Source: an uncultured Clostridia bacterium
GTDB lineage: Bacteria; Bacillota; Clostridia; UMGS1883; UMGS1540
NCBI GenBank assembly: GCA_937966555.1
Contig: CALCLY010000025.1
Span: 57,970 to 121,969, forward strand
Reading direction: 5' to 3'
Length of the DNA: 64,000 nucleotides
The translations under genes and the position numbers were made by a program. Under the pieces are notes generated by a model. That model was not told the DNA's origin and ran no database searches. It was given only the letters and a program-made list of their open reading frames with translations. Every line of letters begins with the position of its first letter. Within the stretch, counting starts at the first letter, position 1. Positions 4,343 through 50,307 of the stretch are shown here, one piece after another.

Positions 4343-4371
4343 GATTGTGATATAGAAAAAAGGAGGTCAGT

Positions 4372-5100: not shown

Positions 5101-5171
5101 GTATTTTATGCAGATTTTAGGAGGTAATTGTAAATTTTTTTAAAAAAAATTAAAAAATTTGCACTTTTCTC

Positions 5172-5200
5172 TTGAAAAAAATCCTAAAAGGATATACAAT
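5172..5200 (+). promoter_or_regulatory. Sigma-A type promoter upstream of ftsZ (TTGAAA - 17 bp - TACAAT; a second TATAAT at 5203-5208)
   Basis: Hexamers and spacing read directly in the AT-rich ftsQ-ftsZ gap. Confidence 0.5.
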
Positions 5201-5239
5201 ATATAATAAGTAATCGAAAATGACGAAGGAGGAGTAAAG

Positions 5240-16231: not shown

Positions 16232-16273
16232 GTAAAATACAATAAAAATTGATTGGGAGTTTTTATATTAACT

Positions 16274-20558: not shown

Positions 20559-21395
20559 TTAATATTTCTTTGTTTTTAAAGCATTTTCAACGTTATTTAT
20601 TGCGCGCGCCGCATCTTCGCCCATGTGATTTACAATGTAGGCATAAATTGAATCTATTATAGCAAGCGCCGCAATACGTGAGTTAAGCCCCAAAATTGAA
20701 TACTGTGTTTCTTTTGAAGACGTATAAAGCGAAATATCCGAAGCTTTAACAATTGGAGATTTGCCGTGATTGGTTATCGAAATTGTGAAAGCTTCGTTTT
20801 TTTTGGCAATTTGCAGAGCTTCAACAATATCGCGCGAAGAACCCGAGTGGGATATTCCCAAAGCCACATCGCCTTTTTTCATGTGAGACGCGGCAATTGC
20901 CTGCATGTGGTTGTCGCAGTATGCAAACGCGCTGCACCCCGCGCGCATGAATTTGTGCGCGGCATCAAGCGCCACGGCGGAGGAATTACCGAGCCCGAAT
21001 ATGTAGACGGCTCCGGCTGTGAGTATTTTTTGCGCCGCAAGCTCAAGTGTTTTGGAATTTAAGCTGCTTTTGGTCATTTCGAGGGAGCGGTATATATCAT
21101 CGGAAAGCTTTTCAAATATTTCAAAACAGCTGTCTGTCGGCAATATATCGGGGTTTGTAAGATTTTGACCGCTTTCCTGTGCAACCGAGATTTTGAGTGC
21201 CTGGTATCCCGAAAAGCCGAGGCGGCGTGCAAAACGGACTATTGTGGCTTCGGAGCTTTCCGCTGCATCGGCAAGCTCGGTTATGGACAGGGGAATAATT
21301 GCCTGTGGGTTGGCGAGAATAAAATCCGCTATTTTTTTTTCCGATTTCCCCATTTTTTCATATTTTATTTGTATGTTTAATATTGTTTTGTTCAT
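20559..21395 (-). CDS. RpiR/MurR family transcriptional regulator (HTH + SIS domain)
   Basis: N-terminal HTH_6 (ITELADAAESSEATIVRFARRLGFSGYQAL) and a C-terminal SIS phosphosugar-binding domain. 278 aa. Divergent from the sugar catabolic operon. Confidence 0.8.
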   Translation of the reverse strand: MNKTILNIQIKYEKMGKSEKKIADFILANPQAIIPLSITELADAAESSEATIVRFARRLGFSGYQALKISVAQESGQNLTNPDILPTDSCFEIFEKLSDDIYRSLEMTKSSLNSKTLELAAQKILTAGAVYIFGLGNSSAVALDAAHKFMRAGCSAFAYCDNHMQAIAASHMKKGDVALGISHSGSSRDIVEALQIAKKNEAFTISITNHGKSPIVKASDISLYTSSKETQYSILGLNSRIAALAIIDSIYAYIVNHMGEDAARAINNVENALKTKKY

Positions 21396-21591
21396 ATAAT
21401 TTCTTCACTTTCGGTTATTGATTTAAGAGCGTTTTAAATGTTTTTTTCACTATATATATTTTATATCAAAAAAAATATCCTGTCAATGAAAAAATTTTTT
21501 AAAAACACTTGAAATTTCTTTTTATTTGTGCTATAATTTTTTTGAAAAAAGAGCTTAAAAACGAAAAATATTTTCAGAATGGAGAGGTTTT

Positions 21592-23013
21592 ATGAACGAT
21601 TTACTGTTTACTCTGATATTAACAGAGCTTGAAGATGCAGTCGGAAAAGAAAATTGTTCGACAAAAGAGATTGATAAAATAACTCACAGTGTCGACTATT
21701 TCTGGCTTTCGAGAATGTGGGCCGACAGGGGGCTCAGAATGCCCGAAGCGGCGGCTGTTGTTTCGCCGAAAAATGCCAAAGAGGTAAGCGCGGTACTTAA
21801 AATTGCAAATTATTACAAGATCCCCGTGACGACATGGGGCGGCGGCGGCGGCACCCAGGGAGGGGCGCTTCCCGTGGCAGGCGGCATTGTTCTCGATACG
21901 AAGAGAATGAATGAGATTTATGACATAAATGAAAAATCAATGTACATAGAGTGCGGAACCGGCGCTATATATAAGCACCTCGAATGGGCGGCAAACGAGA
22001 GGGGATATGCCACAATGCATTACCCGAGTTCTTTGACATGCTCCACCGTCGGCGGATTTTTGGCACACCGCGGCATAGGCGTTGTTTCCACAAAATACGG
22101 AAAAATTGACGATATGGTGCTCGGCATGGAGGTTGTTTTGCCAAACGGCGATATTATTGAAACGTCTCCGGCGCCGAAACATGCGGCAGGTCCCGATTTA
22201 AATCAGATTTTTATAGGCTCTGAGGGAACTCTGGGCATTATGACAAAGGCACAGATGCGTATTTACGATATGCCCGAGGAGAGACGCTTCCGCGGTTTCC
22301 TGTTCCAGAATATGGACGACGCTTTTTGCGGCGCACGTGAGCTTTTGCAGAAATTCAAACCGTCCGTTATGAGGCTTTACGATGAAGCGGAAACGGCAAC
22401 GCTTATCAAAAAAATAGTCGGGGTAGAGAAAAAGGGCGCGTTTATGAACGTTGCGATAGAAGGTGTTTCAGAGCTTGTTGAAGTTGAAGAAAAGATTCTT
22501 CTCGATACGTTTGTAAATAAATATCATGCGGAGGATTTGGGCTCCGAGTACGGTGAAAAATGGTGGAAGGAGAAAATAACGTTCTTCTATCCGGGGCACA
22601 TGATGGATGTTCCGCAGATGTTCGGAACAATGGATACCATAGCTCCGTATGACAAAATCGAAAAAATATACTGGGAGATGAAAAAAGCAATAGAAACAAA
22701 TTTCCCCATGGCAAGGTTTATTGCGCATTTTTCGCACTGGTACGAATGGGGCTGCATGATTTACGACAGATTTATCGTAGACGATGTTCCGAAAGATCCG
22801 CATGACGCACTCCGTCTTCACCAGGAAATATGGACGTGCGGCGTAAGAACGGCACTCCAAAACGGCGGTGTTGTAAACGATCATCACGGAGTCGGCATTA
22901 AGCTCGGCAGACTTATGAAAGAACAGTACGGCCCTGCAATGCAGGTGTTTGAAGGACTTAAAAAACAGCTTGATCCTAACGGAATTATGAATCCGTACAA
23001 GCTGGGATTATAA
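21592..23013 (+). CDS. FAD-linked oxidase (PCMH-type FAD binding, GlcD / D-lactate dehydrogenase-like)
   Basis: 473 aa with an FAD-binding region (PVTTWGGGGGTQGGALPVAGGIVLDTKRMNEI) and a C-terminal oxidase domain. Confidence 0.7.
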   Translation: MNDLLFTLILTELEDAVGKENCSTKEIDKITHSVDYFWLSRMWADRGLRMPEAAAVVSPKNAKEVSAVLKIANYYKIPVTTWGGGGGTQGGALPVAGGIVLDTKRMNEIYDINEKSMYIECGTGAIYKHLEWAANERGYATMHYPSSLTCSTVGGFLAHRGIGVVSTKYGKIDDMVLGMEVVLPNGDIIETSPAPKHAAGPDLNQIFIGSEGTLGIMTKAQMRIYDMPEERRFRGFLFQNMDDAFCGARELLQKFKPSVMRLYDEAETATLIKKIVGVEKKGAFMNVAIEGVSELVEVEEKILLDTFVNKYHAEDLGSEYGEKWWKEKITFFYPGHMMDVPQMFGTMDTIAPYDKIEKIYWEMKKAIETNFPMARFIAHFSHWYEWGCMIYDRFIVDDVPKDPHDALRLHQEIWTCGVRTALQNGGVVNDHHGVGIKLGRLMKEQYGPAMQVFEGLKKQLDPNGIMNPYKLGL

Positions 23014-23023
23014 GGAGGGTATT

Positions 23024-24109
23024 ATGCATTTTTCGGAATCAGCTAAAAAGAATATAGACTCATGCCGTTTCTGCTGGATGTGCAGACATATTTGCCCCAT
23101 CGGAAACGTAACGGGACAGGAGAGAAATACGGCAAGAGCAAGAGCGCTGTCGCTTTCCATGGTGGCGCGCGGCTCGGCAGATTTTTCGGAGGATATTATA
23201 GATAACGTTTATCAGTGCGCATTGTGCAGAGCCTGCACAAATGACTGCGCAACAGGCTACGACCCGGTTGTATACACAAAAGAAGCAAGACTCATGGCGG
23301 CTTTGGAGGGTAAAATGCCCGAGTATGCCGAGAGACTTCTTTTAAATATTGAAAAAACGGGCAATGTGTACGGCGAAAAGAAAATTGACGAAGAGCTTAT
23401 GGCGGAAATCAGCCCGGGAGGAGAAAAGAGCGATACGCTTTTCTATCTGGGTACGGATGCAATTTACAAAACGCCAAAAAACGCAATTGCCGCAATACGC
23501 GTTTTGAGAAAAGCAGGAATTAAATTTGAGCTTCTTAAAGATGAACCCGAAAGCGGTTATGCCGAAGATTTTCTTTTCGGTGCGGCGGACGAAACGAAGA
23601 AAGCGATGAAAAAATGCGCAAAGGCTTTAAACGAATATAAAACCGTAATCGTTTATAACCCCGACGATGCAAAAGAATTTTTAAGAGAATATAAGGAATG
23701 GGGAACAGACCTTTCCGCAAATATCAGAACTTTTGTTTCCGTATTGGCGGAAAGCGTTAAAAACGGCAGCCTTAAAGCGGAAAAAGGCGAAAAGACGTTT
23801 ACGCCTCAGGACACGCCGTCGCTTTCGAGAGAGCTTGAGGATTCGGAAAGTCTGAGAGACGTGCTTTCTGCATTCGGAGAAATAAAAGAAATGCTTCTTA
23901 TAAAGAAAGACACCGTGCTTTGCGCAAATCTTATTATGAACGAATATATGCCGGGCGTTATGAAAGCCGTTGCGGAAAAAAGATGGGCGGACGCGCTGCA
24001 TGTGGGCGCAAAAACGGTTGTGACTTCGTCACCTGCCGAATATTTCATGCTCCAAAGCACAAAGCCCGAGGGAATAGAGCTCCTGAGCATAGAGGAGGTA
24101 GTTTTGTAA
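23024..24109 (+). CDS. Fe-S oxidoreductase with 4Fe-4S motifs and CCG-like domain (GlcF/LutA-like partner of the FAD oxidase)
   Basis: Two Cys clusters (CRFCWMCRHICP; CALCRACTNDC) followed by a Cys-poor C-terminal domain. Directly downstream of the oxidase. Confidence 0.6.
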   Translation: MHFSESAKKNIDSCRFCWMCRHICPIGNVTGQERNTARARALSLSMVARGSADFSEDIIDNVYQCALCRACTNDCATGYDPVVYTKEARLMAALEGKMPEYAERLLLNIEKTGNVYGEKKIDEELMAEISPGGEKSDTLFYLGTDAIYKTPKNAIAAIRVLRKAGIKFELLKDEPESGYAEDFLFGAADETKKAMKKCAKALNEYKTVIVYNPDDAKEFLREYKEWGTDLSANIRTFVSVLAESVKNGSLKAEKGEKTFTPQDTPSLSRELEDSESLRDVLSAFGEIKEMLLIKKDTVLCANLIMNEYMPGVMKAVAEKRWADALHVGAKTVVTSSPAEYFMLQSTKPEGIELLSIEEVVL

Positions 24110-24936
24110 TGCTTTTAAATTTAAAACAATTACTTGATTATACAAACGGGAAGGAATTTGCCGTTCCCGCGTTTAATGTATATAATATGGAAACGGTTAT
24201 GGGTATAATGGCTGCGGCGGAAGAAACAAACGCGCCCGTTATAATCCAGTGTTACTCGCGTCTTTTCACAAACGGCGAGGGAGCATATGTTGCACCTTTG
24301 GCGGTTGCGGCGGCTGAAATGGCACACACACCCGTTTGTTTCCATCTGGACCACGGCGCGGGCGAAGCGGAAGTTATGAAAGCTTTGCGCGGCGGAGCAA
24401 CGGGAATTATGATAGACGGTTCCGCATACAGCTTTGAGGAAAATGTGGCGCTTACAAAGCGCGTAAGAAAACTCTGCGATGCACTCGGCGTGCCGGTTGA
24501 GGCGGAACTCGGACATGTGGGGACGGTAAATGATGAGCATATGGCAGATTTTACTGAAGTTTCCGACGCTGTAAAGTTCGTTCAGGAAACGGGCGTGGCA
24601 TCTCTTGCCGTTATGGTCGGTACGGCTCACGGCAGATACAAAAAAGCGCCGCGGCTTGACATGCAGCGCATTCGCGACATAAGCCGCGAGACAGGTATTC
24701 CGATAGTGCTGCACGGTGGAAGCGGCGTGCCGGACGATCAGATAAAAGAGGCAATAAAGTGCGGCATAAGAAAAGTAAATTTTGGAACGGACGTATGCTA
24801 TTCGTTCCTTGACAAGGTTTTTGAAACATCGCGCGACAAAGTGGCGATAGATATGTTTATGAAAGACGCGGTTCAAAACGTAAAGAATTTTGCCGTAAAC
24901 AAAATAAAGCTTTTGGGAGCTGACAATAAAGCATGA
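24109..24936 (+). CDS. Class II ketose-bisphosphate aldolase (FBA_II family; tagatose-/fructose-1,6-bisphosphate aldolase-like). Start at the TAATG overlap at 24109, not the track start at 23920
   Basis: Motifs PVIIQ, HLDHGAG, the GGATGIMIDGS region and the HGGSG loop of class II aldolases. RBS AGGAGG at 24092-24097. Confidence 0.75.
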   Translation: MLLNLKQLLDYTNGKEFAVPAFNVYNMETVMGIMAAAEETNAPVIIQCYSRLFTNGEGAYVAPLAVAAAEMAHTPVCFHLDHGAGEAEVMKALRGGATGIMIDGSAYSFEENVALTKRVRKLCDALGVPVEAELGHVGTVNDEHMADFTEVSDAVKFVQETGVASLAVMVGTAHGRYKKAPRLDMQRIRDISRETGIPIVLHGGSGVPDDQIKEAIKCGIRKVNFGTDVCYSFLDKVFETSRDKVAIDMFMKDAVQNVKNFAVNKIKLLGADNKA

Positions 24937-25865
24937 TAAAAATAGTGGGAATAGGTGCAAATGTACATGATACTTTAATATCCGTGCCGCATTTCCCGAA
25001 AGAGGACACAAAATCAAAGTGCACTTTTGTAACGGAAAGTGGCGGAGGGCCCTGTGCAACGGGTCTTGTTGCGGCATCAAAACTCGGCGCGGAGTGTGCG
25101 TATATAGGCGCGCTGGCAGATGATGCCGGCGGAAAGTTTCTGCTTTCCGATATGATAAAATTCGGAGTTTCGGCAGAATACACGGTTTTGCAAAAAAACG
25201 CTTCGTCCTTTGCCTCATATATTCTTTTAAACACCGGGAACGCGACAAGAACATGCGTTTTTAACAAAGATAATCTGCCGATTTTTGAAATTGACGAAAA
25301 TGCAAAAAAAGCCATTGAGGCGGCAGAGGTTCTGATGGTGGACGGAAATGAGCTTGAAAACGCCGTAAAAGGCGCAAAAATTGCGCGCGGTGCCAAAACG
25401 AAAGTGCTTTATGACGCGGGCGGAATTTATGAAGACGTTGAAAAGCTTTTGAGACTTACCGACATACTTATTCCGTCCGAAGAATTTTCACTGGAATTTA
25501 CGGGAAAGAAAACTGCCGAAGATGCGGCACATGCGCTTTTTGAGATGTTCTCGTCCGAGGTTGTTGTAATAACGCAGGGCAAAGAAGGCGGAATAATTCT
25601 GCAAAACGGTGAAATACGGCGCTATCCATCATTTAAAGTAAATGCCGTGGATTCAAACGGCGCCGGAGACGTATTTCACGGTGCATTTGCATACGGTGTA
25701 ACAAAAGGCTTTTCATATTATGACTGCTGCGTTTTTGCAAGTGCGGTTTCGGCGCTTAAGTGCACTGCAGTAGGTGCGCGCGCGGCGGTTCCCTCATATA
25801 ACGATACAATTAACTTTTTAAAGGAGTGCGGACATGATGAATTTAAAGAAAACATGGAACGGTAA
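24933..25865 (+). CDS. PfkB-family carbohydrate kinase (ribokinase fold; KdgK/tagatose-6-P kinase-like)
   Basis: C-terminal NGAGDVFHGAF motif of PfkB kinases. 310 aa. ATGA overlap with the aldolase. Confidence 0.75.
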   Translation: MIKIVGIGANVHDTLISVPHFPKEDTKSKCTFVTESGGGPCATGLVAASKLGAECAYIGALADDAGGKFLLSDMIKFGVSAEYTVLQKNASSFASYILLNTGNATRTCVFNKDNLPIFEIDENAKKAIEAAEVLMVDGNELENAVKGAKIARGAKTKVLYDAGGIYEDVEKLLRLTDILIPSEEFSLEFTGKKTAEDAAHALFEMFSSEVVVITQGKEGGIILQNGEIRRYPSFKVNAVDSNGAGDVFHGAFAYGVTKGFSYYDCCVFASAVSALKCTAVGARAAVPSYNDTINFLKECGHDEFKENMER

Positions 25866-26625
25866 GTATGGAAAAAGCGAAATTATAACGCGGAAAAACA
25901 GTACGATGGAGCGCGTTGAAATCAATGCCCTAAAGCTTCACGACGGCGAAACAAAAAAATACAGCGAGTGCGGCAAGGAGTACGGCATAACGATTTTGGG
26001 CGGAAAATGCTCCGTTGAGGGAGACGGATTTTCGTTTGAAAAAATCGGAAAGAGAAAAAACGTGTTTGACGGCACGGCAACCTGCGTATATATTCCGCGC
26101 AACAAGGAGTTTACAATAAAGGGCGAAGGAGAAGTTTCGATGATTGTGGCAAAATGCCCGTCGGAAAAAGACTGTGCTCCGCGCCTTATAAGCCCGGATG
26201 ACATTATAGTAAAATCTTTGGGCAAGCCCGGCTGGCAGCGTGACGCGCACTTTGTTCTCGATGAAAGATGCGATGCGGATATGATTTACATAGGAGAGGC
26301 ATATGTTGAAGGCGGTCAGTGGTCGAGCTTTCCTCCTCATAAGCATGACGATGACAACATGCCCACCGAGGCAGACACGGAAGAGGTTTATTACTATGAA
26401 TTCGATAAGCCGGAGGGTTTTGGTATTCAAATGATCTATTCAAAAGAGGGCGATGTTGACGAGACGATAAAGGTTAAAACAGGTGATTTTGCGGAAATTC
26501 ACAGAGGATATCATCCGCTTGCAACGGCGCCCGGATACAAGTGCTACTATTACTGGGTTATGGCAGGGAAAAACAGAGGATTTTTCATGACAACTGACGA
26601 AGAGCATGCATGGCTCAATAAATAA
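25834..26625 (+). CDS. KduI/IolB-family sugar isomerase (cupin; 5-dehydro-4-deoxyglucuronate / 5-deoxyglucuronate isomerase-like)
   Basis: ~263 aa with a beta-rich sequence and a PPHKHDDD metal-binding-like motif. The family assignment is from memory of KduI/IolB and is uncertain. Confidence 0.45.
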   Translation: MMNLKKTWNGKYGKSEIITRKNSTMERVEINALKLHDGETKKYSECGKEYGITILGGKCSVEGDGFSFEKIGKRKNVFDGTATCVYIPRNKEFTIKGEGEVSMIVAKCPSEKDCAPRLISPDDIIVKSLGKPGWQRDAHFVLDERCDADMIYIGEAYVEGGQWSSFPPHKHDDDNMPTEADTEEVYYYEFDKPEGFGIQMIYSKEGDVDETIKVKTGDFAEIHRGYHPLATAPGYKCYYYWVMAGKNRGFFMTTDEEHAWLNK

Positions 26626-26642
26626 ATTATCGGAGAGCAGCT

Positions 26643-28112
26643 ATGAAATATGTACTCGGAATAGACTTTGGCGGAGGTTCTTCAAAAGCTTTGCTGCTTT
26701 CGGAATCGGGGGAAATTGCAGCCGAAGCGTCGGTTGAATATCCGACGTATTTCCCCGAAAACGGATTTTGCGAGCAAAGACCCGCCGACTGGTATGATGC
26801 GGCATGTGAAAACATACGTATTCTGCTTGAAAAAAGCGGGGTTTCAAGCTCAGATATAAAGGCGATGGCGCTTGACGCCGCAACGCACACGGCGGTGCTG
26901 TGCGACGAAAATTTCAATGTTCTGCGCGATTCGGTTTACTGGACAGACACAAGAAGCTTTGCCGAATGTAAATTTCTTCGCGAAAAATACGGTGATCTTA
27001 TTTTGCGGCAATGTTATCACAGCCCGGACACAATCTGGACTTTGCCGCAGCTTTTGTGGATTAAAAACCATGAGCCGCAGCTTTTCTCAAAGGTTCGGAA
27101 AATTATGTTTGCAAAAGACTATGTGCGCCACATGCTGACGGGTGATTTTGTGACAGACAATGTGGAAGCCGAGGGAAGCATGCTTTTTGATTTTGAAACG
27201 CAGAGCTGGTCACATGAACTTTGCTGCATTTTGGGCATTTCGCCGTCATTTCTGCCGAAGATTGTAAAGCCTTATGATATGGCAGGAAGGATAACAAAAC
27301 AAGCCGCGCTCAGCACGGGACTGTGCGAAGGTATGCCCGTTTTATGCGGAACCACGGATACTCTTATGGAGGTGTTTGCCGCAGGCGGCACAAAAAAAGG
27401 AGCAATGACCGTAAAGCTTGCTACGGCAGGCAGAATCTGCGTTATAACGGATGCACCTCTTAAGGGACGCGACTTTGTAAATTACAGCCATTTTAAGGAT
27501 GGACTGTGGTATCCCGGGACGGCTACAAAATCGTGCGCGGCGTCGCTTCGGTGGTACCGCGATACGTTCGGGGGCAAATATGATGAAATGGATAATGAGG
27601 CGGAAAGAATTCCGGCAGGTGCGGAAGGACTTTTGTTCCATCCGTATTTAAACGGCGAACTTACCCCATATGCCGACCCGGAACTTTGCGCAAGCTTTGT
27701 GGGAATACGTGCCGGGCATACAAAAGCACATTTTACAAGAGCTCTTTTAGAGGGCGTGGCTTTTTCGCTTTTGGAATGCAAAAATGCGCTTGACAAAAAG
27801 ATGACAGACCATGACAGTGCAGCTGCGGCAATAGGCGGAGGAGCAAAAAGTCCTCTTTGGCGGCAGATTGTTTCGGATGTGCTTAACATAAAACTTGCAG
27901 TTAAAAACTGCAGTGACTCATCTTTGGGAAGCGCAATGCTTGCAGGTGTGTATGCAGGATTTTTCGATTCGTACGAAAGCGCGCTGCAAAAATGCACACA
28001 CACGGTTTCCGAAACCGTGCCATCAAAGGCAAGACACGAAAAATATATGAAAGTTTTCGGGCGCTACAAGGCAGTGCATGACGCTTTGGCGCCGATATAT
28101 AAAATGAAATGA
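26643..28112 (+). CDS. FGGY-family sugar kinase (xylulokinase/glycerol kinase fold)
   Basis: N-terminal LGIDFGGGSSKALL motif, a second actin-fold domain with a GGGAKS-like loop. 489 aa. Confidence 0.8.
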   Translation: MKYVLGIDFGGGSSKALLLSESGEIAAEASVEYPTYFPENGFCEQRPADWYDAACENIRILLEKSGVSSSDIKAMALDAATHTAVLCDENFNVLRDSVYWTDTRSFAECKFLREKYGDLILRQCYHSPDTIWTLPQLLWIKNHEPQLFSKVRKIMFAKDYVRHMLTGDFVTDNVEAEGSMLFDFETQSWSHELCCILGISPSFLPKIVKPYDMAGRITKQAALSTGLCEGMPVLCGTTDTLMEVFAAGGTKKGAMTVKLATAGRICVITDAPLKGRDFVNYSHFKDGLWYPGTATKSCAASLRWYRDTFGGKYDEMDNEAERIPAGAEGLLFHPYLNGELTPYADPELCASFVGIRAGHTKAHFTRALLEGVAFSLLECKNALDKKMTDHDSAAAAIGGGAKSPLWRQIVSDVLNIKLAVKNCSDSSLGSAMLAGVYAGFFDSYESALQKCTHTVSETVPSKARHEKYMKVFGRYKAVHDALAPIYKMK

Positions 28113-29461
28113 AGATATTGGTTTGCGTTAAAATCATAAAGGGCGATGTAAATCCGTTTGACGAGTGTGCGCTTGAGGCGGCGCTGAGGCTTTCGGACGA
28201 TGTTACGGTGCTTTCTATGGGACCGGTTTCGTGCCGTGAGCCGCTTCAAAAACTGACGCGCCTCGGGGCGCGGTGTATACTGCTTTCGGACAGCGATTTT
28301 GCCGGTTCCGACACGCTTGCAACATCGTATATTTTGTCCGAAGCGGCAAAAAAAGCAGGGTTTGACCTGATAATCTGCGGCAGACAGAGCATAGACGGCG
28401 ACACAGGGCAAGTTGGCGCGATGATGTCACATATGCTGGATATAAGGCTTTATCCGTTTGTAACAAAGCTTGAGGGACTTAGGGCTCATATGCGGAGCGG
28501 CAAAACGGAGGATATAAAGCTGCCTGCGCTTATTACGGTTGAGAGGATAAATACTCTGCGCTTTCCGTCTATACGCTCACGTGCCGGCGAGGTCACGGTG
28601 TGGGACAATTCCGTTCTTGGTGCCGACAGAGAGCGGTGCGGCATTTCGGGTTCGCCGACAAGGGTTATAAAAAGCTTTGAAAACGAAAGCGGAAAAAGAC
28701 ACTGCCGTTTTATAAAGCTTTCGGAGCTCGATGAGATAATTAAAAACTACAGAAGAAAACCGCGCGCCGTGCGTGAAAGCCATGGCAAGCTTAAAAAGGT
28801 ATGGTGTGTGGGAGAAGAGGCGGCGGCTGAAGCCTTGTGCATTTCTGACGATATTAAGGTGTTGGAAGAAAACAATCCGCTTTTGATTGCAAAGTATGCA
28901 AAAGAAGAAAAGCCGAACGCAATTTTGTGGAAAGCGGATTTGGAGGGCAGAACTGCCGCTCCGATTTGCGCGGCGGAGCTTTCGGCAGGTCTTTGCGCAG
29001 ACTGCACGGAACTTGAAACTGACGGCGAAACTCTTTTTATGTACCGACCGGCGGGAAGCGGCAAAATATATGCGAAGATAAAATGTATTACGGCTCCGTG
29101 TTTAGCCACTGTGAGAACTGCCGCGCTCGGCGGAAGAATAACGGTTTCGGCAGGGAAGGGCGCAAAGGATGCGCTTGAAGCTGTGCACACTTTTGCAAAA
29201 AAATACGGAGCGGATTTCGGAGCTTCGCGTGCCGCGGTTGACATGGGACTTGCGCCGTACGAAGCGCAGATAGGACTTACGGGAAAAAGTATATCGAGCG
29301 ATATATATATAGCAGTCGGGATTTCCGGTGCGGTGCAGCATATGTGCGCCGCCGAAGGGTGCGGACTTATAATAGCCGTAAATTCCGATAAAAATGCGGA
29401 CATATTCGACTATGCCGATATGGGAATAGTATGTGACGCCGACAGGCTGGGAGATATATGA
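28109..29461 (+). CDS. Single-chain electron transfer flavoprotein: EtfB-like N-terminal domain fused to an EtfA-like C-terminal FAD domain
   Basis: N-terminus MKILVCVKIIKGDVNPFDECALEAALRL is the EtfB signature. The C-terminus carries EtfA motifs (LCADCTELE, RPAGSGKIYAKIKC, IAVGISGAVQHMCAAEGCGLIIAVNSD). It is 450 aa, where separate subunits would total ~580. Confidence 0.65.
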   Translation: MKILVCVKIIKGDVNPFDECALEAALRLSDDVTVLSMGPVSCREPLQKLTRLGARCILLSDSDFAGSDTLATSYILSEAAKKAGFDLIICGRQSIDGDTGQVGAMMSHMLDIRLYPFVTKLEGLRAHMRSGKTEDIKLPALITVERINTLRFPSIRSRAGEVTVWDNSVLGADRERCGISGSPTRVIKSFENESGKRHCRFIKLSELDEIIKNYRRKPRAVRESHGKLKKVWCVGEEAAAEALCISDDIKVLEENNPLLIAKYAKEEKPNAILWKADLEGRTAAPICAAELSAGLCADCTELETDGETLFMYRPAGSGKIYAKIKCITAPCLATVRTAALGGRITVSAGKGAKDALEAVHTFAKKYGADFGASRAAVDMGLAPYEAQIGLTGKSISSDIYIAVGISGAVQHMCAAEGCGLIIAVNSDKNADIFDYADMGIVCDADRLGDI

Positions 29462-30639
29462 TTATTAAAAACGGAAAAGTTGTAACAAAAGAAAAAATAC
29501 TTTCCGGATTCGATATAAAATGCGAAAACGGAAAAATTACGGAAATTGCGGAGAATCTGCCGCCCTGCGATGATACTCTATTTGCCGACGGTATGTTTGT
29601 GCTGCCGGGTCTTGTGGATATTCATACTCACGGCGGATACGGCGCGGATTTTATGGATGCCACAAAAGAGGCTTTTGACACGGCGCTTTCGTTTCATATG
29701 CAAAACGGCACGACTTCCGTGCTCGCATCAAGCGTAACGGCGCCCGTTGAAAGCATAGAAAAAATGCTTTGCGCAACGCGCGGATATATGAAGAAGAGCG
29801 GCGGTGTGTGCCGCGTTTTGGGTGCGCACATAGAAGGTCCGTTCATTTCTTATAAAAACAAGGGTGCGCAAAAAGCGGAATATTTAAAAATACCGTCCAA
29901 AGACGGATATTCGTTTATTCTGAACAATGCGGATATTATAAAAAATGTCACCTTGGCAACAGAGCTTGACGGGGCGGTGCAAATGACAAAAAAGCTGACT
30001 TCTCTGGGAATAACCGTTTCGTGCGGACATGATGACGGCAATCTTTTAACTCTTTTGCCGTGTATTGATGCCGGAATGACAAACTGTACGCACTGGAGCT
30101 GCGCGATGAGCTCCGCGGCGGTGCGTGACGGAGTGAGAAATGTAGGTCTTACGGAGCTTGCACTTATAGATGAAAGACTCACGCTGGAACTTTTGGCAGA
30201 CAATCATCATCTGCCGCCCGAGATGGTAAAGCTTGCATATAAGTGCCGCGGAGCGGACAAATTGTGCATAGTTTCCGACTGTCTCCGTGCCGGCGGCATG
30301 CCGCGTGACGGCAGAGTGTATTCTCTCGGAGCCGGAGCGGAGGGAGAAACCTCTCGGTTTATTGTATCGGACGGTGTGGCGCGCCTTACGGACGGAACAA
30401 GATTTGCCGGAAGTATTCAGCCTCTCGGGCAAATGATACGCAATCTTGTTTTTGACTGTAATATACCGCTTGTTGACGCCGTTAAAGCCGCGTCGGCAAA
30501 CCCGGCGAAAATTATAGGCGAAGACGGGTTTGTTGGTTCAATAGAAAAGGGCAAGGCGGCGGACTTTTATATTTGCGACGCGGCTCTCAATCCCAAAATG
30601 ACGATAGTAAATCAGATAATAAAAAATAAATTAATGTAA
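29458..30639 (+). CDS. NagA-family amidohydrolase (N-acetylglucosamine/galactosamine-6-phosphate deacetylase-like)
   Basis: Motifs LPGLVDIHTHGGYGADFMD and HIEGPFIS, and ~390 aa length. Confidence 0.75.
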   Translation: MIIKNGKVVTKEKILSGFDIKCENGKITEIAENLPPCDDTLFADGMFVLPGLVDIHTHGGYGADFMDATKEAFDTALSFHMQNGTTSVLASSVTAPVESIEKMLCATRGYMKKSGGVCRVLGAHIEGPFISYKNKGAQKAEYLKIPSKDGYSFILNNADIIKNVTLATELDGAVQMTKKLTSLGITVSCGHDDGNLLTLLPCIDAGMTNCTHWSCAMSSAAVRDGVRNVGLTELALIDERLTLELLADNHHLPPEMVKLAYKCRGADKLCIVSDCLRAGGMPRDGRVYSLGAGAEGETSRFIVSDGVARLTDGTRFAGSIQPLGQMIRNLVFDCNIPLVDAVKAASANPAKIIGEDGFVGSIEKGKAADFYICDAALNPKMTIVNQIIKNKLM

Positions 30640-30661
30640 AACAAGGAAAGGAAGACCTAAT

Positions 30662-31483
30662 GTGAAAGAAACATATTATTGCAGCCCCGAAGAATTTGCA
30701 AAAAACAGCAAGATTCCGCTGCGCGTTATGAAGACGGAAGAATCCATGTACGAAGAAATCGGCAGACTCATGGCAGATACGATAAAAAATAACGGAGATG
30801 ACAAAACGGTTATAATTTGCCCCGTGGGGCCAATTGCACAGTACACTCACTTTGCAGATATAGTAAACCGCGAAAAAATTAGCCTTAAAAACTGCTGGTT
30901 TATCAATATGGATGAGTATCTGACAGATGACGATAAAACAATAGCTTACAACAATCCTCTAAGCTTTCATGCCACCATGGACAGAATGCTTTATTCAAAG
31001 ATTGACCCCGAGCTTTTGATGCCCGAAAGCCAAAGGCTTTTTCCGATTCCGGGAAAAGAAAAGGAAACAGATGAGCTTTTTGAAAAGCTCGGCAAGGTTG
31101 ATATCTGTCTTACGGGCGTCGGCATAAACGGACATATTGCATTTAATGAGCCGGCAGAGCCGGGAGACGATATAACCGATGCGGAATACATGGAGCTCGG
31201 AACGCGCTGCATGGATATTTCACGCGAAACGATAGTAAATAACGGCGCTCACAAAATCCGCGGCGCTTTGGATATATTTCCGAAAAGATGCATAACCCTG
31301 GGCGTAAAGCAGCTTATGAAAGCAAAGGTTTTGAAGGTTTATCTCTACTGCGACTGGCAGTGGGGAATTGCGAGGAAAATAGCTCTTGAGCCTGCGTCGC
31401 GCTTTATGCCGGCTTCATTTTTGCAGCTTCATGATAATGCGGAGATGGTAATAACGGAGGATTTGTATAATTTTATGCTGTAA
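30662..31483 (+). CDS. Glucosamine-6-phosphate deaminase/isomerase family protein (NagB/AgaI-like), GTG start
   Basis: NagB-family motifs (VICPVGPIAQYTHF; NCWFINMDEYL; DICLTGVGINGHIAFNEP). 273 aa. Confidence 0.7.
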   Translation: MKETYYCSPEEFAKNSKIPLRVMKTEESMYEEIGRLMADTIKNNGDDKTVIICPVGPIAQYTHFADIVNREKISLKNCWFINMDEYLTDDDKTIAYNNPLSFHATMDRMLYSKIDPELLMPESQRLFPIPGKEKETDELFEKLGKVDICLTGVGINGHIAFNEPAEPGDDITDAEYMELGTRCMDISRETIVNNGAHKIRGALDIFPKRCITLGVKQLMKAKVLKVYLYCDWQWGIARKIALEPASRFMPASFLQLHDNAEMVITEDLYNFML

Positions 31484-31517
31484 GATGCTTGTATCGGGCA
31501 TATTATCGGTAAACAAA

Positions 31518-31567
31518 AGCAAGGTGCTGCAAAACGGTTTCGTTTTGCAGCACCTTGCTTTAAAAAA
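31518..31567. terminator. Bidirectional terminator between the nagB-like gene and the convergent AraC gene (AAGCAAGGTGCTGCAAAAC-ggtttc-GTTTTGCAGCACCTTGCTT, flanked by A/T runs)
   Basis: 19 bp perfect inverted repeat, with TAAAAAA downstream and AAACAAAA upstream. Confidence 0.85.
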
Positions 31568-32473: not shown

Positions 32474-32735
32474 TTTGTTCTCCTTATAAAATCGTACGAA
32501 CAATTTATTAAAAAAATTATCTTATTTTATATGGACTTTTTATACTATATATTGTATCATGAAATTGTAAATTAGTCAAGTATCACAAACGCAACCCAAA
32601 ATCCGGTAAAGGAGCTTGATGCGAAAAATTTTCCGCGTCGGTCTCCGGCAGGATCTCCTTTAGTTTTTGCTGCGCGGAGGAGATTTGATTTTGATATTAT
32701 TAATGCCGACGCGCAGCGGCGGAATGGAGTTTTAT

Positions 32736-35700
32736 ATGAAAAAAATAGCTGCAATCATGACGTCGGTTTTCATGTGCTCGTCGTTTCTGCCCGTTTCGGC
32801 CGCACAAAGCGAGACGGTGACGATTCCCTACGTATATCACGAAACCTTCAACGATACCGCGGACGGTTTGGTGCCGTCAAGTATGGTGGCGAACGCCAAG
32901 ACAAATAAAATAGAGGTTAAAAGCGTTCCGTCCGAGAGTGACAAGAGTCTTAAATTCACATCCTCCACTCCGTCGGATTTTTACACAGACATAAGCCTCG
33001 GAGGCCTCGAAGACAATGTAGTAATAGATTTCAAGGTAAGATTTGACAAAAAATCGAATTCGGATTTCAGAATATACATGAAAAACTCGGCGGGAAAAGA
33101 GAGCGAGGTTTTGAGAATCAACAACAGTTTGCAGCTTTGCTCGCCTGACGGAACGGCGTATTCAAAGCTTACTACGGGTAAGTTTTATAAGCTGACAGTT
33201 AAAATCAATACCAAATCAGGACTTGCAAATTACTATGTGCGCGGCAAGGAGCGTGCGCGCGATATTTTGATAGGCGGCGGAACTTTTCAGAATATAAGCA
33301 TTCTCAGATTTCATTCTCTGGGCTTTGCGGGAGGCAACGTTTACCCCGAGTTTTATATTGACGAAATATCAGTTTACCAAAGCGAAAAACCAGATTTTGT
33401 GTTGAAAAACGAGGGTAAAGATGTTTCTTTGGGCGGCGGAACGGTAGGAAGCTCCGCAAGCGGAATTGCATCGGAAAGTGCGGTGGAGGATTATATGGGG
33501 AATGCAGCGGCTTTTTATATAGGTCAGCCGAGAATGTATGTGGACGGCGGCGTACAGTATGTAGACGCGGACAACACGTCGGCGGCGCCTTACATAAAGG
33601 AAGGGAGAACCATGGTGCCGCTTCGCGCGGCGGGAGAAGCTCTCGGGGCGGACCTTACGTACAGCGAAAAAGACCGGTCGGTGACGGTGGAATATGAAGA
33701 TAAAACCGCAGTGTTTACGGTTGATAAAAAAACATTTGAAAAGGACGGCGAAAAAATATCTCTTGACGCGGCGCCCGAAATCACGGCTTCGAGAGTATAT
33801 GTGCCTATCCGCGCAATCAGCGAGACTTTCGGCAAAAAGGTTACGTACGATAAATGCGGGCTGGTTGTTATTGCCGACCGCGAGGATTTCTTTAATTTCG
33901 TAACGGATCTCGATGTTTTCAGAAAGCTTACGGGCGACCTTTGCTTCCATGCGCCCACGGGTGCGGAGCTGGTAAGGAGGATAAAAGAAAACTTCCCGGA
34001 TAACGAGCATCCGCGTCTTTATGCAAACAGCGATAAAATTGCGGTTTTGCGTGAAAGAATTAAAAACGATGCGAATGTTGCAAAATGGTTTGAGAGTGTA
34101 AAGCAGCTTACGGAGGTATATTTCAAGACAGACCCGGTTGTATATGATATTTACGACGGAATAAGGCTTCTTTCAATATGCCGTACGGCAAGAGACAGAA
34201 TGCAGAATCTCGCCTTTTGCTATCAGATGACGGGCGAGACAAGATATGCCGACAGATGCATAGAAGAGATGAAGGCCGTTTGCAATTTTAAAGACTGGAA
34301 CCCGTATCATTTCCTTGATACCTCCGAGATGACAGAGGCTCTTTCCTTTGCATACGACTGGCTTTACGACTATTTGACGCCTGATATGCGCGAAACAGCG
34401 AAAACAGCAATTATTGAAAAGGGCTTAAATCAGATACTTGAAGACTACAGAGACGAGCCTTCGGGCAGAAGAAGAACCTGGAAATGGGCGCAGAGCCCTG
34501 TTGCGGACAACTGGAATTTAGTTTGCAACTCGGGTCTTTTGCAGGGCGCGATGGCTGTTGCGGAGGATGTCCCCGAAATTGCCGCGGAGGTGTTTGACGG
34601 CGGTTTGGAGCTTATCAAAAAAGCCGTTTTGCTTTACGGGCCGGACGGCGCATGGTATGAAGGACCCGGCTACTGGCTCTATGCTACAAGCTACTACACC
34701 GACCTTATGTGCTGTCTTGACTCGGTGTTCTCCGACACCTTCGGCTACTTAAACGTACCCGGTATTGCGCAGACAGGCTATTACATAACTTCGATTACGG
34801 GGCCGTGCGGAAACTTTAACTTTCACGATTCCGACATTGGAAGCGTAAACTCTCCCGAGATATTCTTCCTTGCGGATAAGCTTCATGACGCCGCTCTTTC
34901 AAATCTGCGAATGGAGCAGATGGCAGACAGGGGAACAAACGGAACCATAAGAGATATTTTGTATTATAATCCCGGACTTTCGGGAACAGCGGCAACAATG
35001 CAGAAGGATTACTATTTCCGCGATACGGAGGTTGCGTCTTTCAGAAGCGACTGGGATGACTCAAATTCAATATTCCTCGGCGTTCATGCCGGCAAAACAA
35101 ACGTATATCACGGTCATATGGACGCGGGAAGCTTTGTGCTTGACGGCTTCGGAACACGCTACGCCTCGGATCTGGGCGCGGACAACTACAATATCAGAGA
35201 CAGCGTGTGGAATCTTTACCGCTACAGAGCGGAGGGGCATAACACACTTGTTATAAATCCCTCAAAGGATGGCGGACAGAGGCTTGCCGGCGCGGCAAGG
35301 ATTGACAGATTCGAGTCGGGCATAAACAGCGGCTATGCGATAATGGATCTTACCGATATGTATAAGGACGCCGAAAGCGTCAGCCGCGGCTTTAAGCTTA
35401 CAAATAACCGCTCGGCGGTAATCGTACAGGACGAGATAAAGACAGCGGAGCCTGCCGATATATGGTGGTTCATGCACACAACAAACGACATTGAGGTGGC
35501 GGAGGACGGAAAGAGCGCGACTGTCAAGGGCAAATATAAAAATCTTAAGGTATCGCTTCTTGCCGACACACCGGGAACCTTCTCCGTTATGAGCGCTTCG
35601 CCTATGGAGACTTCGCCGCAGAACTCGGAGCAGAACAAAAACTTAATGTACAAAAAGCTTGCGTTCCATGCGGAAAATGTAACTGATATTACGATTCCCG

Positions 35701-36473
35701 TATTAATGCAGTTTGTAATACCGGTTGAAGGTTTTGAAGAAGAACTCAGCGTTCCGCTTGTTCCGCTCGCACAGTGGACGCTTGACGAAACCGGTGCTTC
35801 CGAAAAACCGATGCTTACAAGCATCACGGTGGACGGTGCAGAGCTTTCAGGCTTTAAACCCGACAGATATGTTTATACATACAGAATACCGGCGGAAAGC
35901 GACAGAATGCCTGAGGTTAAAGCGGAGGGCAGCGGAGAGGTAAGCGTTAAATACACCTCCTCGGTACCGGGATATGCGGTGATTACGGTAAACGACAGGG
36001 TTGACAGCAACGTTATAAACCAGTACATAATTAAAATAGATAAGGAAATCTTAAAACAGGCGCCCGAAGGCGTTTCACAGCTGAGTGTAAAGGAAGTTAA
36101 GGCAAGCTCTGTTCCGCAGCCTGAGAACAGCCCCGAAAACACGCTTGACGGCGATCTTTCAACGCGCTGGTCGGCTGAGGGCAATGCGAATATTGTGTTC
36201 GATCTCGGAGAGAGCAGGTCAGTAAAATATCTCGGTCTGGCGGTTTACCAGGATACGACAAACGACGGAAGACAGCAGTATTTTGATGTGCTTGTATCCG
36301 AAGACGGAGAAAATTATACTCAGGTCTACAGCGGCGAAAGCTCGGGAACAACGCTTGAGGAGGAAATATTCCCGATTCCCGAAACACGCGGAAGATATGT
36401 GAAGATTTATTGTAAGGGAACAAGCGTCGGAAACTGGAATTCGCTTACGGAGTGCACTTTGTACGGCAATTGA
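32736..36473 (+). CDS. Secreted multidomain polysaccharide lyase 1: signal peptide, LamG/DUF1080-like jellyroll, Cu-amine-oxidase-N-like domain, heparinase II/III-family domain, C-terminal F5/8 type C (discoidin) domain
   Basis: Signal peptide MKKIAAIMTSVFMCSSFLPVSAAQS. Heparinase II/III motifs (NWNLVCNSGLLQGAMAV; YHGHMDAGSFVLDGFGTRYASDLG). C-terminal NTLDGDLSTRWSAEG discoidin region. Start chosen at the ATG at 32736, with GGAG 6 nt upstream, in frame with the track start at 32667. Confidence 0.75.
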   Translation: MKKIAAIMTSVFMCSSFLPVSAAQSETVTIPYVYHETFNDTADGLVPSSMVANAKTNKIEVKSVPSESDKSLKFTSSTPSDFYTDISLGGLEDNVVIDFKVRFDKKSNSDFRIYMKNSAGKESEVLRINNSLQLCSPDGTAYSKLTTGKFYKLTVKINTKSGLANYYVRGKERARDILIGGGTFQNISILRFHSLGFAGGNVYPEFYIDEISVYQSEKPDFVLKNEGKDVSLGGGTVGSSASGIASESAVEDYMGNAAAFYIGQPRMYVDGGVQYVDADNTSAAPYIKEGRTMVPLRAAGEALGADLTYSEKDRSVTVEYEDKTAVFTVDKKTFEKDGEKISLDAAPEITASRVYVPIRAISETFGKKVTYDKCGLVVIADREDFFNFVTDLDVFRKLTGDLCFHAPTGAELVRRIKENFPDNEHPRLYANSDKIAVLRERIKNDANVAKWFESVKQLTEVYFKTDPVVYDIYDGIRLLSICRTARDRMQNLAFCYQMTGETRYADRCIEEMKAVCNFKDWNPYHFLDTSEMTEALSFAYDWLYDYLTPDMRETAKTAIIEKGLNQILEDYRDEPSGRRRTWKWAQSPVADNWNLVCNSGLLQGAMAVAEDVPEIAAEVFDGGLELIKKAVLLYGPDGAWYEGPGYWLYATSYYTDLMCCLDSVFSDTFGYLNVPGIAQTGYYITSITGPCGNFNFHDSDIGSVNSPEIFFLADKLHDAALSNLRMEQMADRGTNGTIRDILYYNPGLSGTAATMQKDYYFRDTEVASFRSDWDDSNSIFLGVHAGKTNVYHGHMDAGSFVLDGFGTRYASDLGADNYNIRDSVWNLYRYRAEGHNTLVINPSKDGGQRLAGAARIDRFESGINSGYAIMDLTDMYKDAESVSRGFKLTNNRSAVIVQDEIKTAEPADIWWFMHTTNDIEVAEDGKSATVKGKYKNLKVSLLADTPGTFSVMSASPMETSPQNSEQNKNLMYKKLAFHAENVTDITIPVLMQFVIPVEGFEEELSVPLVPLAQWTLDETGASEKPMLTSITVDGAELSGFKPDRYVYTYRIPAESDRMPEVKAEGSGEVSVKYTSSVPGYAVITVNDRVDSNVINQYIIKIDKEILKQAPEGVSQLSVKEVKASSVPQPENSPENTLDGDLSTRWSAEGNANIVFDLGESRSVKYLGLAVYQDTTNDGRQQYFDVLVSEDGENYTQVYSGESSGTTLEEEIFPIPETRGRYVKIYCKGTSVGNWNSLTECTLYGN

Positions 36474-50253: not shown

Positions 50254-50283
50254 TTGACTTTGTGTTGAGTTTTATTGTATAAT
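50254..50283 (+). promoter_or_regulatory. Sigma-A type promoter for lyase 2 (TTGACT - 18 - TATAAT)
   Basis: Hexamers read directly, ~25 nt upstream of the RBS GGAGG. Confidence 0.5.
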
Positions 50284-50307
50284 TCAGAAAAAAGGTTGGA
50301 GGTAATT

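Follow-up and report, generated by a model that had tools for sequence, protein, structure and literature searches.

A single open reading frame (ORF) at positions 28109-29461 of a 64,000-nucleotide stretch from an uncultured Clostridia bacterium (contig CALCLY010000025.1, assembly GCA_937966555.1; hereafter the window) encodes, from an ATG start on the forward strand, a compact electron-transferring flavoprotein (Etf) of 450 amino acids (aa), in which an EtfB-type part is followed by an EtfA-type part. The ORF is uninterrupted, as opposed to the heterodimer of two subunits encoded by two genes at every canonical locus used for comparison (68/68). It is located between genes for an FGGY sugar kinase and a NagA-like deacetylase and overlaps both in ATGA sequences, with its ATG (28109-28111) sharing bases with the FGGY stop codon (28110-28112) and its stop codon (29459-29461) with the NagA ATG (29458-29460). 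These coordinates verify the ATGA overlaps noted in an original prediction, made from the DNA sequence alone, which had also described the product as a compacted EtfB-EtfA fusion.

All of the motifs quoted in that prediction are found in the ORF, and the fusion is borne out by profile matches, structure alignments and homologues alike. Pfam family PF01012 (ETF) matches the chain in two stretches (E=2.8e-43; 148 bits against a cut-off of 26.7) and PF00766 (ETF_alpha) matches aa 344-414 (E=5.7e-22; 77.9 bits against a cut-off of 27), so that the C-terminal half is EtfA-like by hidden Markov model. The α/β domains of the EtfB/EtfA N-terminal type and the C-terminal EtfA flavin adenine dinucleotide (FAD) domain of the ETF superfamily are both present, and in alignments to known structures EtfB chains cover aa 13-192, with EtfA chains covering approximately aa 204-339 and 342-446. 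The exact 450-aa sequence was found on seven contigs from four independent sources (NCBI, JGI, Logan, and ENA), and the members listed for its 90% identity cluster of 177 are all 450 aa long. The best 120 homologue clusters are all full length (∼446-470 aa) and share 54-58% identity with the window protein, apart from two nearer ones at 74 and 98%, and the full-length relatives number hundreds, with identities down to 37%; NCBI labels the homologue clusters only as "FAD-binding protein". A frameshift that would split the ORF was looked for and none was found. We therefore reject the idea that the ORF arose in sequencing or assembly, or that two normal etf genes have lately become a pseudo-fusion: nothing was found in its favour, and it is countered by the identical contigs, the cluster lengths and the relatives, as well as by in-frame deletions common to the family and a confident structure model. 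The ORF encodes a genuine, conserved, size-reduced EtfB-then-EtfA single chain.

The domain boundaries were assigned from an alignment of the compact family (40 members) with canonical EtfB (66 sequences) and EtfA (49 sequences) proteins, whose genes form ordinary etfB-etfA pairs and which share the "DGDTAQVG" type. The chain begins with an EtfB-type domain III core (aa 1-181; 28109-28651), within which are found the site of a 20-aa deletion (aa 8-13; 28130-28147), an SDxFAG remnant of the NAD motif (aa 60-66), the motif of the second, bifurcating FAD (b-FAD), which here reads DGDTGQVGA (aa 96-104; 28394-28420), and LRFPSIxS (aa 150-157), the equivalent of the recognition loop. The core is followed by the SPT anchor (aa 182-184) and the EtfB arm (aa 184-214), a strand and a helix that together with the anchor span 28652-28750; the arm aligns with the canonical EtfB C terminus and its helix is seen at residues 204-213 in the model. 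A variable fusion linker (aa 215-228; 28751-28792), with a mean majority fraction of 0.40 as compared with 0.77-0.79 in the domain regions, leads into the remnant of EtfA domain I (aa 229-336; 28793-29116), which carries GLCADCT and, in YRPA, Arg313. A junction of just seven residues (29117-29137) connects domain I with domain II in place of ∼42 canonical residues, and the chain closes with EtfA domain II, the electron-transferring FAD domain (aa 344-441; 29138-29431), assigned from PF00766 and alignments to 5ol2_A, 7koe_B, and 6fah_A. The original prediction had placed "ADCTELE" and "RPAGSGKIYAKIKC" among the motifs of the C-terminal FAD domain; both are instead in domain I, beside the second-FAD site.

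Compared with a canonical pair (about 262 + 340 aa), the compact Etf has ∼150 residues fewer, accounted for by four main deletions. The first removes 20 aa straight after the first strand ("CVK"), corresponding to the exposed segment named the EtfB protrusion by Demmer et al. (PMC5691135), and the second removes four or five residues in the region of the recognition loop. The third takes out the first β-α unit of EtfA domain I (∼33 aa) along with three small loops. The fourth comprises 42 residues after "ATVR", by which domain I loses its end and the linker to domain II disappears; from the description in PMC5691135, the "EtfA hairpin", a cover for the second FAD and the nicotinamide, would probably fall within this block.

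An AlphaFold2 model of the 450-aa chain was of high confidence (predicted local distance difference test score (pLDDT) 90.2; predicted template modelling score (pTM) 0.87), and its structural matches were exclusively Etf chains. The EtfA half of the model superposes over 213-215 residues on the free, closed ETFs 1efp and 5ow0 at 2.2-2.5 Å, whereas only one domain (125 residues) superposes on the D-state complex 6fah_E. Similarly, Foldseek gave a root mean square deviation of 5.0 Å to 4kpu_A as compared with 11-13 Å to the D-state complexes 5ol2, 7qh2, and 6fah. As superposition favours closed ETFs over D-state complexes, the model adopts a closed, B-like arrangement, although as a prediction it is silent on dynamics.

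Mutagenesis of the lactate dehydrogenase (Ldh)-EtfAB complex of Acetobacterium woodii has defined three EtfB motifs, 122-DGDTAQVGP-130 for the second (bifurcating) FAD, 87-RxFxG-91 for NAD and 223-SPT-225 as the anchor of the arm, and mutation of the b-FAD motif led to the loss of about one FAD per protomer (PMC9232219). The N5 atom of b-FAD is contacted by an arginine, EtfA Arg205 in A. woodii and Arg136 in Clostridioides difficile (PMC9232219, PMC5691135). Most of this site is retained in the compact family. In the b-FAD motif (consensus DGDTAQVGP), D, G, D, T, Q, V, and G are found in 40/40 members, A in 37/40 and P in 38/40; the SPT anchor is present in 40/40, with the strand and helix of the arm kept; and Arg313, the equivalent of the arginine hydrogen-bonded to N5 of b-FAD, is invariant. 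The FAD site of domain II is intact, with ASRxxVD, QxGLTGK, and GISGAxQH all conserved. The NAD motif keeps its F/Y and G and has lost its arginine. The second FAD/NADH site, which the original prediction had named as a feature to check for, is retained for the flavin and the anchor and incomplete for the nucleotide. The recognition-loop equivalent LRFPSIxS is almost invariant, which suggests a single fixed protein partner.

The top matches in the PDB are all bifurcating Etfs (5ol2, 7koe, 6fah, 4kpu, and 7qh2; E 1e-24 to 4e-31), with non-bifurcating ETFs scoring lower (EtfB chains E 1e-6 to 1e-13; EtfA chains 6e-23 at best). Because of this ranking the compact Etf is, by sequence, a descendant of the two-FAD (bifurcating) lineage, as the conserved b-FAD motif and N5 arginine also indicate. 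It very probably still binds a second FAD, and its alignments place it as a form that has lost elements thought to choreograph bifurcation together with one residue of the NAD site. Electron confurcation, which had been raised as a possibility, is thus left with a b-FAD site that is kept and an NAD site in which one of three mutationally defined residues is not conserved; confurcation with NAD is possible.

The Etf gene is the seventh in an operon that probably extends from 21592 to 31483, as the best forward-strand promoter-like site (21509-21537) precedes the first gene and a hairpin with a 20-bp stem (31517-31560) follows the last. The first two genes encode an FAD-linked enzyme of the GlcD family (21592-23013, +) and an Fe-S protein (23024-24109, +), which the original prediction had placed in the same operon, and the Etf is genetically locked to both.

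The Fe-S protein (361 aa) contains two CxxCxxCxxxC [4Fe-4S] sites of the cubane type, with invariant cysteines Cys14/17/20/24 and Cys65/68/71/75, and one further conserved cysteine, Cys198. Pfam gave a match to Fer4_8 only. The AlphaFold2 model (pLDDT 87.7) had as its top Foldseek match the soluble region of mycobacterial EtfD (9ojn; E=1.9e-11, TM 0.77), followed by a LutA model and HdrB. In EtfD, electrons pass from ETF to clusters bound by CCG motifs, then through two cubane clusters and haem b to menaquinone (PMC13083937). The soluble fold covers the entire 361-aa chain, with the first cluster motif starting at residue 14, and leaves no membrane or haem b domain; neither CCG cysteine motifs nor a match to PF02754, even at E<=10 and with the C-terminal part included, were found. 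The "CCG-type" protein of the original prediction therefore stands in fold ancestry (EtfD/HdrB/LutA-like) and falls in its cysteines, and the model is that of a soluble EtfD-like version keeping the two cubane clusters only.

The FAD enzyme (473 aa), placed in the GlcD family by Pfam domains, falls well below the cut-off of the glcD profile (195.9 against 567.9), and its closest solved relative is alkyl-dihydroxyacetone phosphate (DHAP) synthase (ADPS; 2uuu, E=3e-39), followed by mouse D-lactate dehydrogenase (D-LDH; 7e-33) and A. woodii LctD (3e-28). ADPS enzymes, which perform acyl/alkyl exchange on DHAP and possess a lipid tunnel, are 584-658 aa long and the alignment begins at ADPS residue ∼140/211, with the long N-terminal region absent from the window protein. 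Arg419, Tyr578, His616, and His617 of guinea-pig ADPS align with Arg261, Tyr391, His431, and His432, and the motifs AHFSHWY and DHHGVG match AHISHTY and HHHGVG in ADPS, where the first His of the HHH loop is replaced by Asp in the window. Tyr578 and Arg419 have a catalytic role in ADPS. His616 and His617 have been cited as active-site residues (PMC13019191).

An Ldh-Etf-like complex that oxidizes D-lactate, glycolate, or a D-lactyl/glycolyl group derived from amino-sugar catabolism, as was first suggested, could draw on the GlcD-family Pfam domains, the sub-threshold glcD match, the adjacent NagA gene and the RpiR/MurR-type regulator of the window. This analogy fails at the residue level. In the substrate site of Ldh a metal is bound by His377, His384, and Glu422, with His423 as the base (PMC9232219), and these four residues align with His380, Gly387, His431, and His432; the metal triad is hence reduced to His/Gly/His, and DHHGVG is found in place of the (G/A)EHG(I/V)G motif present in every solved 2-hydroxyacid dehydrogenase of the fold (D-LDH/D-lactate, glycolate, and D-2-hydroxyglutarate (D2HGDH) enzymes). 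Moreover, ADPS outscores every 2-hydroxyacid dehydrogenase, NagA is missing from most related gene cassettes and the NagB-like gene from all others examined, and there is no MurQ-type etherase. No Ldh-type genes were present beside the 68 canonical etfBA pairs, and the residues were compared by way of PDB alignments. We consider this reading very improbable. As the metal triad and the Glu-His pair are absent and the ADPS residues present, the enzyme is in its details not a lactate or glycolate dehydrogenase, and its sequence looks built for a DHAP-like keto-phosphate moiety.

The remaining genes of the operon, all on the forward strand, describe a sugar pathway. The Fe-S gene is followed by a class II ketose-bisphosphate aldolase (24109-24936; PF01116 E=4.8e-86, TIGR00167 above its cut-off), found in all loci, and then by a PfkB-family sugar kinase (24933-25865), a KduI/IolB-family isomerase (25834-26625; IolB equivalog TIGR04378, 236.9 against 205) and, directly upstream of the Etf, the FGGY (XylB-like) kinase (26643-28112), assigned, like the PfkB kinase, from profile matches and synteny. 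Two accessory genes complete the operon, the NagA-like deacetylase (29458-30639; TIGR00221, 237.7 against 225.65) and a NagB-like protein (30662-31483). The latter has a GTG start, no Pfam match and a sub-threshold score (88.6 bits against a nagB cut-off of 236.9), such that its deaminase label is weak. A divergent RpiR/SIS regulator, identified by profile matches, lies upstream on the reverse strand (20559-21395), with promoter-like sites facing each other at 21458-21537; it also adjoins the cassette in L001, L009, and L085. Two GGDEF/GGDEF-EAL signalling proteins (16253-20258, +) are encoded just upstream of this regulator.

The same fusion was found in similar operons elsewhere. The order GlcD-like/Fe-S/aldolase/PfkB/IolB/[variable]/FGGY/Etf is held in every locus long enough to show it, with the proteins 46-66% identical, apart from the FAD enzyme, which is 80-88% identical between loci; its homologues P0271-P0390 are 82-91% identical across Clostridia, Bacilli, Paenibacillaceae, and Planctomycetota, reflecting either an exceptional degree of constraint or a horizontal spread of recent date. 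With the compact member that diverges most (38% identity) the genes of the cassette are found in a rearranged order, and even there FGGY and Etf remain paired. Among the loci examined, NagA is found in the window and L003 only and the NagB-like gene in the window only; in their stead other loci have a ∼470-aa FucI/AraA-like protein upstream of the FAD enzyme, DUF4867, PMI-type cupins, an AGE-family epimerase, or an ARMT1-like phosphatase. The amino-sugar setting proposed for the operon thus applies to the window, with its NagA- and NagB-like genes, and not to the core of aldolase, PfkB, IolB-like, and FGGY genes, to which NagA and NagB are lineage-specific additions. The cassette is thus a mobile unit for an aldose or ketose, and, as NagA is present in some loci only and the NagB-like gene in the window only, the amino-sugar genes are a local elaboration.

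Two further variations were noted in the cassettes. A ∼450-480-aa protein, missing from the window, is encoded directly upstream of the FAD enzyme in many of them (L001 1020-2432, L009 1424-2839, L084 8356-9795, L086 8590-9987, and L089 1650-3011), adjoining the Etf in L089; it matches no Pfam family and has a faint resemblance to the FucI C terminus only (E=0.02). The IolB/KduI genes of L007 (7719-8504), L009 (7149-7934), and L086 (14284-15075) share 35-37% identity with that of the window, as compared with 48-68% elsewhere, which suggests two isomerase subtypes inside one cassette layout.

Several routes were considered for the sugar. No paper or described pathway was found in the literature for the combination of iolB, Etf, FAD-linked oxidase, xylulokinase, and aldolase. 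DUF4867 is a cupin whose largest sequence cluster neighbours FucI-family and FGGY genes (PMC11968277), and a sulfoquinovose route by way of DUF4867 was not adopted, since no sulfoquinovosidase was seen and the DUF4867 group is found merely beside those genes. For an IolB/IolC/IolJ-type route (5-deoxyglucuronate to DHAP and malonic semialdehyde) the cassette contains neither a source of substrate nor a sink for malonic semialdehyde, and the chemistry of a KduI/uronate route is incompatible with a DHAP-type aldolase; both would leave the flavoenzyme without a role. Tagatose/GalNAc, 6-deoxy-sugar, hexitol, and sulfo-sugar routes were also weighed and none was established.

The polysaccharide genes downstream provided no clue to the substrate, as none was common to other loci beyond SLH domains, and the polysaccharide-utilisation neighbourhood of the window (heparinase II/III-like and GH43) is likewise not shared by the other cassette loci. 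In the window it includes three heparinase II/III-like proteins (PF07940 and DUF4962; 32667-36473, 50275-53373, and 53548-55395, +), of which two also contain Cu_amine_oxidN1 and F5/8 type C domains, and which adjoin SLH-domain proteins, a GH43/CBM6 protein, and a GFO/IDH/MocA oxidoreductase. The window begins with a cell-division/cell-wall cluster (78-6301, +; the end of MraY, FtsW, MurG, MurA, FtsQ, and FtsZ) and is therefore chromosomal.

An exhaustive search of 1.84 billion cluster representatives returned ∼30 clusters of the compact form at 50% identity and, beyond these, a separate population of full-size EtfB-EtfA fusions (550-640 aa) matching in three pieces. The compact Etf is carried by about a dozen of 185,579 species-representative genomes, from Clostridia (among them Ca. 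Fimenecus, Faecalimonas, Ruminococcus, Ructibacterium, and Oscillospiraceae) and one Thermoguttaceae, and the source material is largely gut and rumen metagenomes. An orthologue of the Fe-S protein is encoded by the cultured species Ructibacterium gallinarum. The cassette was seen in Clostridia, Paenibacillaceae, and Planctomycetota, and is complete, with a fused Etf of 489 aa, on a Paenibacillaceae contig. Thermoguttaceae contain an Etf as well as the dehydrogenase part, encoded at separate loci: one contig (L084 8356-20242) carries a cassette split by mechanosensitive channel and GH67N/DUF4838 genes, without FGGY and Etf, and another (L010 9998-11413) a lone compact Etf, 47% identical to that of the window, among unrelated neighbours.

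A second type of compact fused Etf (P0175, P0179, and P0210; 465-487 aa) has kept the N-terminal protrusion, with ∼20 residues of domain III gone. In L087 (315-1778) its gene follows an FGGY gene and precedes a gene of the alkaline ceramidase family; other than this upstream FGGY gene, the contexts of the second compact type (L087) and of the full-size fusion (L088) differ from the cassette. Split versions of the compact form were also sought, and the half-length matches proved to be mostly fragments, ending in mid-domain or starting inside the helix of the arm. One sequence, P0230 (236 aa), is apparently an unfused EtfB, the first ∼125 residues of which are compact-like, without the protrusion, and whose arm at the C terminus has a canonical look. 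An evolutionary intermediate is one possible explanation for it, a chimera another.

On balance, we consider it somewhat probable that the compact Etf is a minimised single-chain protein of the bifurcating lineage acting as the dedicated carrier of a three-protein redox module, which would consist of the Etf, the ADPS-like FAD enzyme (21592-23013), and the soluble di-cluster protein (23024-24109). The architecture, motifs, genetic linkage and partner identities were observed; the number of FADs bound, the path and direction taken by the electrons, the nature of the substrate and the occurrence of bifurcation are inferred. The module would supply the sole redox step of a mobile sugar cassette otherwise made up of isomerases, FGGY and PfkB kinases, and the class II aldolase. 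The FGGY kinase would probably provide the substrate of the module by phosphorylating a ketose or polyol, giving a compound with a DHAP-like end. Electrons would pass from the substrate to the FAD of the dehydrogenase, on to the FAD of Etf domain II and from there to the second FAD at the domain I/III interface, with the di-cluster protein as a putative relay to or from ferredoxin. In this role it may correspond to the ferredoxin domain that EtfA carries as a fusion in Ldh-Etf and caffeyl-CoA reductase, and that is essential in Ldh-Etf (PMC9232219), or else to FixX; the best structural match of the Fe-S protein, EtfD, is a proven Etf partner (PMC13083937). At the second FAD, the pyridine nucleotide most likely to serve as partner is NAD(H). 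The module would then be a confurcating/bifurcating device, and this is its least secure step.

The window also encodes an [FeFe]-hydrogenase of the HydABC (bifurcating) type (55598-59732, +), with three adjacent genes for a thioredoxin-like [2Fe-2S] protein, a NuoF-like FMN/Fe-S protein, and the hydrogenase large subunit. Its presence points to reduced ferredoxin and NADH as redox currencies and thus to a host that is, as judged from its genes, a ferredoxin/NADH-based anaerobe. With these currencies, a confurcating oxidation (substrate and reduced ferredoxin to NADH) would be physiologically sensible. The same hydrogenase, as a consumer of ferredoxin, is also in keeping with a reductive bifurcation, in which NADH would reduce the second FAD, one electron passing by way of domain II to the ADPS-like enzyme and the other by way of the di-cluster protein to ferredoxin. 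The ADPS-like enzyme would then reduce a high-potential, sugar-derived acceptor, with energy conserved as in butyryl-CoA dehydrogenase-Etf and caffeyl-CoA reductase. The motif evidence is the same for this direction of flow, and the nearest solved relatives are reductive bifurcating complexes; however, there is no evident candidate in the cassette for a high-potential acceptor, the arginine of the NAD site is missing, and enzymes of the GlcD/VAO fold normally oxidize their substrates, making it distinctly unlikely.

A number of observations weigh against a dedicated carrier of the bifurcating type. The b-FAD motif of the window carries two substitutions, A100G and P104A, and the arginine of RxFxG (R in 62 and K in 3 of 66 canonical EtfB sequences) is replaced in the compact family (S 21, N 5, G 4, A 3, and others including P and T). 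The EtfB protrusion and the 42-residue block that probably holds the hairpin are deleted, and in bifurcating Etfs the protrusion and the hairpin guide the swing of domain II and cover b-FAD and NADH (PMC5691135). In addition, the seven-residue connection between domains I and II, together with the third tether created by the fusion, may hinder the ∼75-80° swing between D and B states. The Fe-S protein lacks the CCG clusters thought to be the entry point for ETF electrons in the EtfD family, the dehydrogenase resembles ADPS, whose reaction is redox-neutral, and the cassette is also found in Paenibacillaceae, which are not obligate fermenters.

Some of these features could be accommodated by a linear, non-bifurcating wire, in which single electrons would pass from the dehydrogenase FAD through the Etf flavin(s) and the two [4Fe-4S] clusters to ferredoxin or another acceptor, without NAD(H), and the losses of the protrusion, the hairpin and the NAD-site arginine would reflect lost bifurcation. 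The unconserved arginine and the deletion of the protrusion and domain I tail are as expected for such a wire, and the Fe-S protein is similar to EtfD, a plain ETF acceptor (PMC13083937). Non-bifurcating Etfs close to bifurcating ones are known (PMC9232219), and the Ldh-ETF-Bcd system of Fusobacterium nucleatum is reported as an example (PMC12630350). On the other hand, the strict conservation of the b-FAD motif, the N5 arginine, and SPT is hard to square with an idle second site, a mid-potential substrate would be unable to reduce ferredoxin uncoupled, and a quinone or haem part that could act as a high-potential sink is missing from the Fe-S protein. We regard the wire as fairly unlikely, and retain the bifurcating-lineage carrier as the preferred interpretation.

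Fused EtfB-EtfA proteins were known before; what sets the compact form apart is its size, the loss of the guides of the mobile domain, and its partners. The Etf of Sulfolobus acidocaldarius (SaETF) is a full-size, fused, two-FAD, NADH-reactive monomer encoded beside acyl-CoA dehydrogenase (ACAD), FixCX, or ETF-QO genes (PMC12042025). As in SaETF, the window protein is a single chain with EtfB before EtfA, bifurcating signatures, and a third tether that ties the mobile domain to the base. Unlike SaETF (∼600 aa; EtfB part 4-266, EtfA part 287-607), it has 450 aa, without the protrusion, the first unit of domain I or the domain I tail, and is encoded in a sugar cassette with an ADPS-like enzyme. 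The module as a whole is reminiscent of A. woodii Ldh-EtfAB (LctBCD, 7QH2; PMC9232219), in which a GlcD/VAO-fold FAD dehydrogenase is likewise combined with a bifurcating-type Etf, possessing the b-FAD motif, N5 arginine, and SPT anchor, and an Fe-S relay. It differs in that the dehydrogenase lacks the metal triad and Glu-His pair, the Etf is single-chain and truncated with an unconserved NAD-site arginine, and the Fe-S relay is a separate 361-aa protein, the 450-aa chain itself containing no Cys motif or ferredoxin domain.

The partner proteins show a comparable mixture of shared and missing features. The Fe-S protein has the same soluble fold, two cubane sites, and Etf linkage as EtfD/FadF/DgcB (9OJN; PMC13083937), GlcF, and HdrD, but not the membrane/haem b part of the EtfD family or the CCG cysteines for a linear [3Fe-4S] and a noncubane [4Fe-4S] cluster. 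The FAD enzyme keeps the equivalents of Arg419, Tyr578, His616, and His617 of ADPS/AGPS (2UUU, 4BBY), as well as AHxSHxY and HHGVG; the ADPS reaction is redox-neutral, whereas the linkage of the FAD enzyme with an Etf and an Fe-S protein implies that its own chemistry is net redox. In FixABCX/EtfABCX, too, a bifurcating-type Etf is accompanied by a separate small Fe-S protein (FixX), which there mediates contact with the dehydrogenase partner, although neither FixX (a small ferredoxin) nor FixC (an ETF-QO-like quinone reductase) is found here. Within the ETF superfamily, the compact Etf is thus derived from the bifurcating group, and it fails several defining features of canonical bifurcating Etfs and of the Ldh-Etf complex.

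Etfs are a model system of flavin-based electron bifurcation, and current models assign the gating of the flavin domain's swing in large part to the protrusion of EtfB, the hairpin of EtfA and linkers that are long and flexible. The compact Etf represents a natural family from which the protrusion, hairpin, and long linkers have been removed and in which the second-FAD site has been kept, and is either a minimal bifurcating device or a case of dismantled bifurcation; either outcome tests the gating models directly. A small, monomeric Etf would also suit electrochemistry and efforts towards "bifurcation on a chip", the aims for which SaETF was studied. The ADPS-like flavoenzyme and soluble EtfD-like protein point in turn to an uncharacterised redox step in anaerobic sugar catabolism. 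In a more specific version of the module, which we put forward tentatively and think rather unlikely, a minimal single-chain Etf, still capable of bifurcation or confurcation, and a cluster-depleted EtfD-like relay would link an ADPS-like covalent-flavin enzyme to the NAD and ferredoxin pools, in a net two-electron reaction at the DHAP-like carbon of a sugar phosphate. Speculatively, this reaction could be the conversion of a polyol phosphate to a ketose phosphate, or a water-dependent hydroxylation or ether/ester cleavage beside the keto group. If true, the cassette would constitute an unrecognised mobile sugar pathway and its flavoenzyme a new class of Etf-dependent sugar-phosphate oxidoreductase.

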